Made by a program: the position numbers and the translations under genes. A stretch of 63,000 nt of DNA, the filler included, from Octopus bimaculoides (Eukaryota): NCBI RefSeq assembly GCF_001194135.2. It is 7 parts of 7 records of this genome, joined end to end, with 100 filler letters (N's around TTAATTAATTAA, not from the genome) between each part and the next. Parts side by side here need not be neighbours in the genome. Positions count along the whole stretch, not along the records: positions 1 to 21,687 come from NC_068981.1; positions 21,788 to 26,369 come from NC_068983.1; positions 26,470 to 49,129 come from NC_068986.1; positions 49,230 to 53,979 come from NC_068987.1; 3 more parts are not named here. One strand, written 5' to 3'. The notes beneath the pieces were generated by a model that was not told the origin of the DNA, did no database searches, and worked only from the letters and a program-made list of their open reading frames with translations. The first letter of the stretch is position 1; the number at the start of each line of letters is the position of its first letter. Below are positions 20,138 to 53,979 of this stretch, piece by piece.

Positions 20138-20327
20138 ATGGGAGAATATACAAATAATAACAACAGACGAGGACAGGTGGTGTAAATAACAAAAGTATAT
20201 ATTAGTATGATGCTCGGGAATACGGAAAGTCTTTGACGTTTCGAGCTACGCTCTTCAACAGAAAGAATACGGAGACAAGGAGAAAAACACGGAGAAAAAA
20301 AATTGAATAGTGTTCAGTCAACGGTCA
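20138..20327 (-). mobile_element. Hammerhead-bearing ~190-bp repeat, copy 1
   Basis: Near-identical reverse complement of 48938-49129 and 53786-53979, with the same ends. Confidence 0.9.
20230..20266 (-). ncRNA. Minimal type I hammerhead ribozyme motif (U6 variant)
   Basis: UCUUU-CUGUUGA-A-GAGC(GUA)GCUC-GAAA-CGUC-AAAGA; stems I and II perfectly paired. Confidence 0.7.
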
Positions 20328-20699
20328 ATCATAATAATATATATATATATNNNNNNNNNNNNNNNNNNNNNNNNNNNNNNNNNNNNNNNNNNNNNNNNNN
20401 NNNNNNNNNNNNNNNNNNNNNNNNNNNNNNNNNNNNNNNNNNNNNNNNNNNNNNNNNNNNNNNNNNNNNNNNNNNNNNNNNNNNNNNNNNNNNNNNNNNN
20501 NNNNNNNNNNNNNNNNNNNNNNNNNNNNNNNNNNNNNNNNNNNNNNNNNNNNNNNNNNNNNNNNNNNNNNNNNNNNNNNNNNNNNNNNNNNNNNNNNNNN
20601 NNNNNNNNNNNNNNNNNNNNNNNNNNNNNNNNNNNNNNNNNNNNNNNNNNNNNNNNNNNNNNNNNNNNNNNNNNNNNNNAATAATAATAAAATGAATGT

Positions 20700-21225
20700 A
20701 TATATATCAACTAACAATAAATAACAAATGAATTTATATAAAAATACTTATTATATCAAGAAGTAAAAGTACTTATTTTACTAATAAATAAAAGAAGAAT
20801 ATTTAACGATATTATACTTATCGAAGCTTTAGTTTAAACTAAAATTAAATGTCACACTATTAACATATCGTATATTAGAATATCAGCTAACAATATATAA
20901 CAAATGAATTTCTATAAAAATACTTATTTTACCAATAAATAAAAGAAAAATGTTTAACAATATTATTAAAAATAAATGTAATACTCATCTTATTGAAGTT
21001 TAAGGTTAAGCTAAAAATATTAACGTGACATTATTAACTTTACATTTATTAGAATATAAACTAACAAAAATATTACATGAATTTATATAAAAATATTTAT
21101 TTCACCTATAAAAAGAAAAACACTTAACAATATTATTGAAAATAAATGCAAAGCTTATCTTAACGAATCTTTTGTTTAAAATACAATTTAAACGTTTTAC
21201 TAGAATATAAACTAACAATACATGA
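20700..21225. repeat. AT-rich degenerate tandem array, unit about 175 bp, about 3 copies
   Basis: The anchor ctaacaa recurs at 20711, 20887, 21061 and 21212, with collinear downstream motifs (atgaattt.tataaaaata.tta). Confidence 0.75.
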
Positions 21226-21573
21226 GCATGTATGTATTTCAAGCGAGGGTGGTTTAGTATATATATATATAGGTGAATGTACGGATTGGTGCGCTTACGG
21301 GAACACGATAGACTTTTCTAATCCCTTACTTTTACCCCCTCCCCTTACTTAGCGGTCTATAGCTCTTTTGTTTTAATAACGGTCAACCATACAGTAATTT
21401 CCCTTTGTTTAATGGTCATTTTTCACAAGAATTTTCAATGGCCGGATAACTGAACAGATGTTGGCGTGGGTTCCCACCCCAGCATCCGAAATTCGGAGTT
21501 TTATCATGGCTACCGAATAAGTGTCACATATTTTTACAGATATGTATATATATCTATCTATCTATATATATAT

Positions 21574-21672
21574 CATCATCATCATCATCATCATCGTTTA
21601 ACGTCCGCTTTCCATGCTAGCATGGGTTGGACGATTTGACTGAGGACTGGTGAAACCGGATGGCAACACCAG
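21574..21672 (-). mobile_element. RTE 3' tail fragment
   Basis: Nearly identical to 266-360. Confidence 0.9.
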
Positions 21673-21731
21673 ATATATATATATATANNNNNNNNNNNNN
21701 NNNNNNNNNNNNNNNNNNNNNNNNNNNNNNN

Positions 21732-21743
21732 TTAATTAATTAA
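21732..21743. other. Assembly spacer TTAATTAATTAA inside N-runs (also at 26414, 49174, 54024, 58131, 59656)
   Basis: The same 12-mer sits between N-runs six times and places TAA in all six frames. Confidence 0.9.
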
Positions 21744-50199: not shown

Positions 50200-50560
50200 T
50201 GGTAATATTCAACAAATAGGTACATGCCCGTATAGGTTTAGCTTTTACTTCTGCTTGTACATTATTATACATTTGTACACCTCTAATTGTACTCTATTAT
50301 ACATTTGTACACTACTTACAGTCGATTCTACATTTTAGATATCTTATACTTACCCACCTGTAACAAGGTTTTGATTTAATATAAACTATGTACTCTTACT
50401 CAGATGATAATTTAATTTACTTATAAATTCATTGTGGAATAGTTTTATCATGACCACCTTAGCAATATGCTTAGAAAAGGCCTTATGAACTTTCTCTTAT
50501 ATATTAAAGTACCTCATTTTTAAGGTTTAAGTTTAATCCTTTTTTATCCTTTTTCCATTA
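50200..50560 (-). mobile_element. Possible degenerate PLE linker / GIY-YIG relic
   Basis: KLFHN...KLNY, VVYKCII and TYTGM pieces in different frames; weak. Confidence 0.3.
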
Positions 50561-50829
50561 TATTGTTCTAAAATTCTTTTCTAAATTTTTAATATATTAA
50601 ACTGGCTAAGTTATGATACATCTCATAACCCTAGGTTATAATTCTCACCCCTAGAACCTATTTTGACCTCTTTTGTTTTCCACTTTATTCTCCTTTTATT
50701 TGAAATCTAAATACGTACTAGCCACCCTCGTCCTTCCTCTTTCTAGTTATCACCTCTTCTCCATCAGTCATTCTTTTACTAGCAGCTCTGAGAAATATCC
50801 TTTTATGCGGATAAAGCTAGATATACGGT

Positions 50830-52400
50830 CCCAGTAAAATAATGGCCGAGGAGAGCATCGTATGAGCCTCGTCTGCATTCTTTTTGTTCAGTGGGGAAAA
50901 GGTTATTCTCTTCCATAAACGTATATGTTTTCTCCACTAGAACAGATGTCAAAATCTTATAGGTAGTAGACAAACGTTATAGGCCGATAGCTTTTTGGGT
51001 CTTTGGTCTCGTTATTTTTGGGGAAGAGGTAAGTAATACCATTTGCCATCCAATGGGGAGTTTTTTCCGGGTCTTTCATAATACTATTAAATAGTATTAC
51101 TAACATTTTGTGTGCGGACGAGAGTGATGAGAGCCAGAAATTTGGTACTCTATCAATACTGGGGGAATTTCCACTTATGAGCCTTCGTTAGTGCCCTCCT
51201 TAGGTCTGTGATTGAGATGTCTTCCGATACCTGTTCTTGTAGATTTTTGTAGGCATCTTGGGTGCGTTTGATCCAGTCTGCATTTTCATTGTATGGTTTC
51301 TCATCACTCCAGATCCCTTTCCAAAAGTTTTCAACTTTTTCCATTCGGGGTGGATTTTCAATGGTTATTTTTTCTTTCCCTATTTCTCTGTAAAATGATT
51401 TGGCATTGGATTTGAACATTTTATTTTGCTTGTAGAATTTGATTCTTTTCTCAAATCTGCGTATTCTCTGAGATTTTGCTTGAACTTTTTGTTTGTGTTT
51501 CGTTCGCTGACATTGGTTCTTCTCTTGTTGAGAGTTCATATTTTCTCACAATCTTCCTGCCTTTTCTTGATCTTACACCGTTTCCAGAAATTAGCTCATT
51601 AATATTGATATCTCCCTTTGCAATGATTCAATCTCAGTTTCAATTCTACTCCTCCAGTTTGATTTTCTTTTCGAATTTGGTATTGTTGGCTTTGTGGGTG
51701 TTAAACAGCGTCTTTCGATTACCTTAGCAACAGAGTAAATAATTTCATTTAACTTATTAAGATCGAGTTTTAGTTGTATGATTTCTTGTGTAACACAGTT
51801 GCCAATTTTTATTTGTGTTTTTGTTGGTGTGCATTTGAGAGTTTATGAAGTGGTTCCCTATCATTCATATTTGTATGCCCTACAACTTCAAGCTCATTCA
51901 GAACTTCCTACTTCATTTCAATGATAGATTTTCTGTGTTGTTCAGCAAATATGTGGTCTTCAAATTCTGTTTTGACATCATTATCCTGGCTGTTTTTTCT
52001 AGGGTCATTATATTTTCCTTTTTCTTTAGGCTCTTGAGTGGTTTTGGCAGATGGTCGCCTTTTAGTCAATGCTTGTGGTCCAACATTCTTCTCCTCTGCT
52101 TCGTTATTTCTTTCCTGACTTATATGTTTAGGTCTTTCTCTACCACTTTTTTAATAGAGGTTAATTCTGCATCTGTAAGTCTGGTATTTCTGAAGATATC
52201 TCTTCTAACATTTGCTAATCTGTTTTCGTCCAGGTTTGGTCTGCTTGCTAGATTTTGGTTCCTCTAAATTCTGTAGAAGTTTGCGGTTTGTTTCTCTTGG
52301 GTTGGCCTACTTAATGCAAAGTAATGAGCGTATATTACTTCTTTATATTCTTTCCGGTTCCATTTAGTTTTTTTACATTTTTGATTTTGTGGTCGTTATG
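50830..52400 (-). mobile_element. R4/Dong N-terminal region and start of RT
   Basis: KQKVQAKSQRIRRFEKR...QNKMFKSNAKSFYREI...FWKGIWS; GITYLFPK...YRPITCLPT. Confidence 0.88.
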
Positions 52401-52779
52401 GTGGTGAACTTTGGGGACTTAATTTGGGATAAATCCCATTTAAGTGACCTTCCAGGTTCGTATTCGAGGAAGATATTCTGCTATTTGAAAATTTTTCGCC
52501 GTCAGGCTGACAGCCTCCTCACAGTTGCGCTTCCAGAATAACCACTGGACAAGCGATTCGGTGTACTGTTTGAAATTTTCTTTTCTTTTTAAATAGAGTA
52601 AAATTATTATTAAATTTTATTTTTATTATTATTATTATTATTATTATTACTACTACTACTACTACTTTTACAACCACTATTGTCATTAGCAATAGTAATG
52701 GTGTTAACACTATCAATAACACTAATAGTAGTAGTGGTGGTGGTAGCGGTCGTATCAGAGTTATTAGTGGTTTTGTGGC

Positions 52780-53230
52780 TTTGACCTATGTTAGGATTAT
52801 ATATATTTAGGTAGTAGGAATTAAGTTTATGTTTATTGGAAGATTCTATATTGGGCGGGGAAGAGTAGGATAATTTTAGGGTAGATCTATTAAAGATTGG
52901 ATGGTACTTATGGTAACGTGGGAAGTTATAGTCAACTATTTGAAAGAATGTTTTGGCTGAGTCCTTTAAGTTTAAGGTGAATGGGGGTGTAAACCAGAGA
53001 ATCGATCTACCCCTGCTTTTGTTATGCAATATAAGGTAAATATAATCTATAGTATTTGTTAGAGCGAGTTGTAGGCTTTATTGTTGTTTATTTGTTTGAG
53101 TTTCGATCAAGTGTTATACAGATGAGCATATGGCTGACGAGTGTGTCTCACCCGAGGTCCTTCCAAGTTTCTAGCTGGGGTTTTAGTTTGTTTATCTATA
53201 CCGGAATGGTTTATTTGTCTTGTAGAAACG
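52780..53230 (-). mobile_element. Penelope-like element RT-endonuclease linker relic
   Basis: ILWFTPPFTLNLK...NFPRYHKYHPIFNRSTLKLSYS matches the WFNPP...HFP..H....IFNR.T.K.SYS PLE motif. Confidence 0.8.
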
Positions 53231-53785
53231 ACTGTAAGACTTCAAATTCACCTTATCCTAATTAAATTATTCTAAATAACTTGAGATACTCGTTCTGCCT
53301 TGGTTATGATTTTTCCTCTAATATAAGATAATATAATATAAACACCAAAATCCCTACATTCACACCTACTGACATGAATCTCACACATATACGCATACAG
53401 GCACAAATCCCCAGATACATAAAAACAGGACCTAAACACTTGACATGAAATACACACACACACACACACACACACACACACACACACACACACACACACA
53501 CACTACAACTGCTGTAACCACACTGTGCATGTATATTTATACGCGTGTATGTTCATCTAATGTATCTATGCATATGCATGTATGTGTATCATGCACCTAC
53601 ATTTTGTGTATGTGTGCAAGGATGTATGTGTCTACGTATTTATCCATTGATGGACGCAGTATATATTTGAACCTGCGAATATTTTAAATGTATGCACGTG
53701 TATATTTTATAAATATCTCTTTATAAATGTACACATGACTACCATGTGTTTAAGCATGTGTGTGTATGTCTTTATTGTGCGTACA

Positions 53786-53979
53786 TGACCGTTGACTGAA
53801 CACTATTCAATTTTTTTTCTCCGTGTTTTTCTCCTTGTCTCCGTATTCTTTCTGTTGAAGAGCGTAGCTCGAAACGTCAAAGACTTTCCGTATTCCCGAG
53901 CGTCATACTAATATATCCTTTTGTTATTTACACCACCTGTCCTCGTCTGTTGTTATTATTTGTATATTCTCCCATATAT
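53786..53979 (+). mobile_element. Hammerhead-bearing ~190-bp repeat, copy 3
   Basis: Same boundaries as copies 1 and 2. Confidence 0.9.
53847..53883 (+). ncRNA. Minimal type I hammerhead motif (U6 variant)
   Basis: TCTTT 53847-51, CTGTTGA 52-58, A, GAGC/GCTC 60-63/67-70, GAAA 71-74, CGTC 75-78, AAAGA 79-83. Confidence 0.7.

Follow-up and report, generated by a model that had tools for sequence, protein, structure and literature searches.

Can a hammerhead ribozyme motif that has lost a core base still cut, and how has the repeat that carries it spread? The question is raised by a 63,000-nt stretch of the genome of Octopus bimaculoides (assembly GCF_001194135.2), referred to here as the window. 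It holds three copies of a short repeat, each containing a minimal hammerhead ribozyme (min-HHR) motif of the kind found in Penelope-like elements (PLEs), with U instead of A at position 6 of the core (U6). We find a discrete non-coding unit, abundant and flanked by AT, whose motif is of the PLE type and whose U6 is common to the family. The element class is known; what deserves attention is the single fixed change and how readily it can be assayed. The role of hammerheads in PLEs has been called an open question (PMC8557442), and a high-copy family with a lost core base offers a clean natural test of it.

The repeat is a discrete, abundant unit flanked by AT-rich DNA

Self-BLAST of the window confirmed the three near-identical copies reported in a preliminary description of this DNA, with pairwise differences of only 2-3 substitutions (3/192, 2/194, and 3/192 letters; coordinates in Table 1). 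No fourth copy was found, and the unit matched no other window sequence, including fragments resembling long interspersed nuclear elements (LINEs). Copy 1, together with the loose ends of contigs from public sequencing runs, defines a unit of ~195 bp with common ends. Its start lies ~5 nt earlier than first described, at ATGAT, which is present in copy 1 and in the loose ends of three of the four runs analyzed; copies 2 and 3 carry shortened versions. The ends had also been said to run into (TA)n. They are indeed common and AT-flanked, but a TA run on the 3' side can be read only for copy 1, with copies 2 and 3 reaching an N gap after 4-6 AT letters. When the repeat was translated in one frame, no protein match was found; with the loose ends, this result agrees with the earlier view of a unit devoid of an open reading frame (ORF), with defined ends in AT/TA tracts. 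The 5' end can be read as four codons that differ synonymously between subfamilies, a frame too short to weigh. A bacterial promoter scan stayed at chance level, and the method is not applicable here.

The abundance of the repeat was estimated from public data. Among 24 runs listed, 17 contained at least half of the sampled repeat words, all from the same organism (organism A); eight are possible sources of the window DNA. Contigs of four runs were aligned to the repeat at 80% likeness, a threshold at which more divergent copies escape detection. In run X2, one of the possible sources, the type of which was taken as DNA by guess, 8,497 contigs align to the repeat, and depth reaches 1.8-3.3 million over most of the unit compared with 39.5 on unique flank (ratio 4-8 x 10^4); such summed contig depth is not a copy number and is inflated by overlapping contigs. 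Scaling the copy density of the window to the 2.36 Gb of X2 gives 1.2 x 10^5 copies. From the X2 depth, the genome likely holds tens of thousands of copies. Depth in X2 falls at 53786, where the loose ends are AT-rich, mutually unlike, and end in ATGAT (45 contigs, agreement 0.57), and the loose ends on the 3' side continue into AT; this evidence comes from the 24 of 155 loose ends displayed.

The family had been considered young, which holds for the three window copies. Older subfamilies exist as well, because pieces listed for X2 show as many as 16 differences over 105 nt; overall, subfamilies differ at up to ~15% of sites (10-16 differences in 82-113 nt). In a gut metatranscriptome, X18, five repeat contigs over 53786-53954 carry the same variants as organism A, and one of them is identical over 82 nt; carry-over is a likelier source than transfer. 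A fraction of 0.38 of the repeat words also occurs in two runs from insect metatranscriptomes.

The motif matches a PLE hammerhead at every consensus position but one

The motif lies ~95-130 nt before the 3' end of the repeat. In copy 3, stem I (53847-51/53879-83) is followed by the core CUGUUGA (53852-58), an extra A (53859), a 4-bp stem II (53860-63/53867-70), GAAA (53871-74), and an ACGU palindrome, with C17 at 53878. A descriptor of this layout with position 6 left free gave exactly three matches in the window, the three copies, compared with 0.01 per window in 100 Markov shuffles, and the pairing proposed in the preliminary description thus stands. Rfam returned no match at the gathering threshold, and relaxing the cutoff to E<=10 still brought up no hammerhead family.

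The published min-HHR consensus (U-rich, CUGANGAH, G..C stem II, GAAAN, palindrome, NUH, AU-rich; PMC4209133, Fig. S3) is matched at all positions except 6, where U replaces A, in line with the PLE-type assignment made earlier. Stems I and II with G10.1-C11.1, an extra base after A9, a palindromic stem III, and an NUH site are all present, the missing PLE feature being the CUGANGA core with A6, in place of which all three copies have U6. The extra A and the stem III made of a palindrome only are PLE traits that have already been described and are not new.

Energy minimization predicts a rod, with the core paired to AACG, and not the open hammerhead. Since the rod is no more stable than shuffled sequences (folding z-scores of -0.7 to +0.9), the hammerhead call rests on the motif match and not on energy. 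Two other accounts of the core were tried and rejected. A shifted register that keeps A6 (UUGAAGA) breaks both stems, with stem II at +4.0 versus -3.9 kcal/mol. The idea that U6 locks the motif in the inactive rod is not discriminated by folding energy, because misfolding is predicted for a control carrying the canonical base as well (-8.7 versus -8.0 kcal/mol); with U6, the probability of the rod is 0.78-0.97 in a 37-mer and <0.2 in the full unit.

The putative ribozyme probably cuts poorly or not at all. By analogy with published systems, weak activity is likely: the monomer of a min-HHR showed no cleavage and dimers cleaved weakly (PMC4209133), a natural A6C hammerhead cuts slowly in Mg2+ and does better in Mn2+ (PMC3088659, PMC7151607), and PLEs devoid of hammerheads proliferate well (PMC8557442). 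The A6C hammerhead, from phage Bcep176, resembles the repeat in having a natural change at position 6, but the base is C, there is a single phage copy, and its activity has been measured.

U6 is the state of the family as a whole

Fourteen positions vary at >=2% in at least one of the four runs. Position 6 (53855) is not one of them, nor are the remaining bases of the core (C3-A9 and G12-U16.1); absence of a variant row at >=2% is not proof of identity. U6 is the family-wide state (3/3 copies, no variant row >=2% in 4/4 runs), because no position-6 variant reaches 2% although subfamilies differ at up to ~15% of sites. These data support the earlier proposal in so far as U6 marks the whole family rather than a decay of individual copies. 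A6 in most copies, named in the preliminary description as the opposing case, is not what was found: no A6 row reached 2% in 4/4 runs. Judging from one loose-end consensus (13 contigs, agreement 0.74), some copies may carry U4C, with U6 kept.

In X2, the motif varies by C17U (37%) and by an additional loop 2 base (~3%), changes that fall where variation is tolerated; the consensus has NUH at the cut site. A change at 53870 that breaks stem II was present in two contigs of X15 (9% of depth) and at 0.13% in X2. In a post hoc comparison, common X2 variants occupied 0/31 constrained motif positions and 9/71 positions downstream (one-sided p 0.03); with all runs, the values were 1/31 and 11/71 (p 0.07), and the whole motif gave p 0.08-0.11. 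Evidence for selection on the hammerhead fold is nevertheless weak, because the 5' part is equally quiet (1/61 positions, in part through the clipping of divergent subfamilies), no stem was seen to change on both of its sides, and the C-to-T change in stem II of copy 2 is private and lies in a CpG. This last change had been offered as support for the fold, as it preserves a wobble pair; being a CpG transition absent from the list of variants at >=2%, it no longer serves as such.

Origin and spread of the repeat

Cervera and De la Pena (2014; PMC4209133) place min-HHRs in the pseudo-long terminal repeats (pLTRs) of PLEs, mainly as dispersed single copies. Like the repeat, metazoan PLE min-HHRs are type I, with a 5-bp stem I, an extra base after A9, G10.1-C11.1, GAAA-CGU-C with a palindrome only, a U-rich leader, and single dispersed copies. 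They have A6 in 56/56 representatives, from a search with invariant core boxes that was blind to U6, whereas the repeat has U6, a short (4-bp) stem II, and no parent ORF that could be found. In Adineta, Penelope pLTRs are 181-218 bp long, occur as solo pLTRs, and are by themselves enough for integration in trans (PMC3846280). Solo pLTRs and non-autonomous PLEs (PMC3846280; MRC1 of Chlamys, PMC8557442) share with the repeat a length of ~190-220 bp, the lack of an ORF, and presumed mobilization in trans; the repeat differs from them in being far more abundant and in its fixed variant core. The repeat has the size (~200 bp), internal hammerhead, and microsatellite insertion of a pLTR. Craig et al. 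(2021; PMC8557442) report a (TA)n bias for Hydra and Naiad PLEs and a microsatellite bias for Neptune. Hydra-clade PLEs, including Hydra-1_Obim, also resemble the repeat in inserting into (TA)n, in carrying a hammerhead ~100 nt from the 3' end, and in occurring in molluscs, but A6 is present in 26/26 rows of File S2 of that work, as is a 3-4 bp stem III with a loop, and the repeat has neither. For O. vulgaris, 190 PLE families have been described, and ribozymes go unmentioned in the available portion of that paper (PMC13282606).

Taken together, the pLTR-like size, a motif position as in many Hydra-clade ends, the TA/microsatellite target, and PLE remnants in the window lead us to favor, with a probability of about 0.6, the view that the 195-bp unit is a putative solo pLTR, derived from a PLE 3' end and copied in trans into TA tracts, with a single ancestral A6U change and cleavage that is slight or absent. 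Transcripts would come from one or a few masters, and the reverse transcriptase and GIY-YIG endonuclease of an autonomous PLE would recognize the pLTR, nick TA tracts, and insert unit-length cDNA. A6U would have arisen once, in an ancestral master, and been inherited by all its offspring. A lone copy, unable to form stem III, would stay uncut; only two copies paired by their ACGU palindromes could cleave, and the missing A6 would make this slower still. Amplification would probably be independent of efficient cutting, and the kept fold may be a weakly constrained RNA structure.

Several observations weigh against a trans-copied solo pLTR. No parent PLE was found in the window, in the supplement of PMC8557442, or in the one-frame protein search; words of the unit are absent from the Hydra/Naiad/Chlamys PLE consensus sequences in the part of that supplement available, bar one chance match. 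Hydra-clade hammerheads, Hydra-1_Obim among them, have a longer stem III than the repeat. As 24 of 155 loose ends were displayed, a minority of copies may continue into a PLE ORF, and target-site duplications are unreadable in TA tracts. Finally, common variants are fewer in the motif than in the 3' part, which could mean that useful cleavage persists.

The PLE remnants are a decayed ORF and a decayed GIY-YIG region (Table 1), both assigned to Hydra by likeness to motifs in PMC8557442; within the former, positions 52820-53077 (-) hold a decayed ORF with 70% identity to a protein listed under Octopus bimaculoides. They were rejected as the parent: one lies on the opposite strand ~700 bp from copy 3, the other is separated from copy 2 by 1.5 kb and a gap, and neither is joined to a copy. 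Because of this and of the different hammerhead type, we consider a Neptune- or Poseidon-type partner at least as likely as a Hydra-type one. A stretch at 53140-53320 (+) that contains GAAAC stands head-to-head with the Hydra fragment and fails the descriptor; it may be another decayed PLE end.

A related account dispenses with a separate non-autonomous master and takes the copies as the shortest 5'-truncated insertions of an undescribed autonomous PLE with a U6 pLTR. Most min-HHRs of animal genomes are single and have been ascribed to truncated PLEs (PMC4209133), Hydra-clade remnants do occur in the window, and the eight letters that open a related subfamily match the codons of the CPHD end of the endonuclease remnant (47412-47429), a weak lead. 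Past these codons, however, the remnant is unlike the repeat, and Hydra hammerheads differ in stem III. The sharp common 5' boundary also speaks against truncation, as do loose ends that are AT-rich and unlike each other, with no common upstream sequence. We regard this account as rather unlikely. We give still less credence to a non-LTR retrozyme, in which rare tandem masters would yield multimeric RNA that is cleaved as dimers, circularized, and reverse-transcribed, the dispersed monomers being dead-end offspring. The preliminary description had leaned partly this way. Animal retrozymes are, like the repeat, short ORF-less units with type I hammerheads and a relation to PLEs; their size is near (220-350 bp; PMC7229834), their families can be nearly all monomers and derive from pLTRs (preprint 10.64898/2026.07.22.740005), and two runs guessed to be RNA contain the unit at high depth. 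Yet they are defined by tandem units, circular RNA, and hammerheads that are mostly canonical, with loop contacts (PMC7229834), whereas the repeat has a minimal motif, and its contigs yielded no tandem joint, circle, or cleaved end. Of the contig joints in the aligned runs, the two listed are both internal skips, and neither is head-to-tail, though joints at single-copy depth are visible; this point is weak, as TA spacers break contigs. None of the three window copies has a tandem neighbor, two of them stopping at gaps. Copies derived from circles, moreover, need not have common ends ~95 nt on each side of the cut. Contigs do span the predicted cut (e.g., record 5 of X15, 53849-53913, with 0 differences), and they carry no information on strand, ends, or level. 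The retrozyme-like part of the description accordingly finds no backing in these joints or in the motif type.

Fixed ends, very high abundance, and the loss of A6 would also suit an element resembling a short interspersed nuclear element (SINE), moved by a LINE enzyme, whose hammerhead, taken over from a PLE, is a dead relic. Here, no tRNA gene was found by a search not aimed at decayed heads, there is no poly(A) tail, the unit has no BLAST match to the LINE-like fragments of the window, and the whole unit has the size and layout of a pLTR; we judge such an origin very improbable.

It is conceivable, though we hold it to be improbable, that U6 marks a natural hammerhead variant that remains active, is under selection, and has become fixed in the dispersed copies, tens of thousands in number. 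If so, cutting would require two transcripts to pair through ACGU, the metal preference might be altered as in A6C, and the repeat would constitute a genome-wide conditional RNA cutter in host introns. The core would then be more tolerant than descriptors assume, and present counts would miss whole families, since an active U6 family is invisible to CUGANGA descriptors and Rfam; many such families could be escaping notice. A dead U6 would mean that PLE-type spread can do without efficient self-cleavage.

Searches beyond the window

The exact motif had no matches in viral contigs and prokaryote genomes. A relaxed scan, built to retrieve non-A6 copies, gave at least 1 viral and at least 119 metagenome loci among the matches listed. 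The repeat was absent from these loci, the best resemblance being one 28-nt match in GC-neutral DNA. Most relaxed matches fail the stem tests, and 12 descriptor matches remained in 9 of the 120 fetched loci. A second min-HHR family is present in low-GC metagenome contigs (L051, with two opposed copies, L028, L035, L061, L007/L117, L103, and L106). It has a 6-nt palindrome, and C6, G6, and U6 copies occur among A6 siblings; unlike the family-wide U6 of the repeat, this mixture has the look of decay. Two further loci, L105 and L017, are single min-HHRs with the stem II arms and CGUC end of the repeat, one with U6 and a 6-bp stem I, the other with C6. In the literature searched, the scope of which excluded Lunse et al. 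2017, Repbase, and Dfam, there was no description of the octopus repeat or of a natural A6U family.

Other features of the window

Table 1. Coordinates of the repeat copies, hammerhead motifs, PLE remnants, and other repeats in the window
Feature	Position	Strand	Remarks
Repeat unit, copy 1	20140..20332	-	ATGAT 5' start to terminal CCC; Flanked by TA tracts 5' and 3'; 5' end as in loose ends of public runs
Repeat unit, copy 2	48938..49125	+	Preceded by (TATG)n tract; N gap after
Repeat unit, copy 3	53786..53973	+	N gap after
Minimal type I hammerhead motif, copy 1	20230..20266	-	C3 20261, U6 20258; predicted cut after 20235
Hammerhead motif, copy 2	48999..49035	+	C3 49004; private CpG-type C-to-T in stem II
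Hammerhead motif, copy 3	53847..53883	+	U6 53855; predicted cut after 53878
Decayed ORF of Hydra-type PLE (before endonuclease linker)	52775-53098	-	65-70% identical to octopus protein misnamed GATA zinc finger-like
Decayed C-terminal GIY-YIG region of Hydra-type PLE, CPHD end	47105-47444	+	Likeness to published motifs
Interspersed repeat family	266-700/5890-6490/21572-21672		Self-BLAST
Interspersed repeat family	7150-7390/9208-9484/10665-10926/27485-27690/29375-29606/33804-34229		Self-BLAST
Interspersed repeat family	22038-22408/42152-42937		Self-BLAST

The window is AT-rich, filled with microsatellites, and gapped (5,706 N). Pfam gave no convincing family in the 154 proteins scanned (151 being window frames, of 153 listed). 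Fragments of ORFs at 785-1294, 9745-10539, and 50960-51842 (all -), which had no relevant Pfam match, resemble remnants of LINE reverse transcriptases. Six gaps of 100 bp (21688-21787, 26370-26469, 49130-49229, 53980-54079, 58087-58186, and 59612-59711) consist of 44 N, 12 letters, and 44 N, with the same AT palindrome in the two gaps read; they are likely an assembly placeholder rather than biology, and copies 2 and 3 each stop at one. Self-BLAST also revealed at least three other interspersed repeat families, with 70-98% identity between members.

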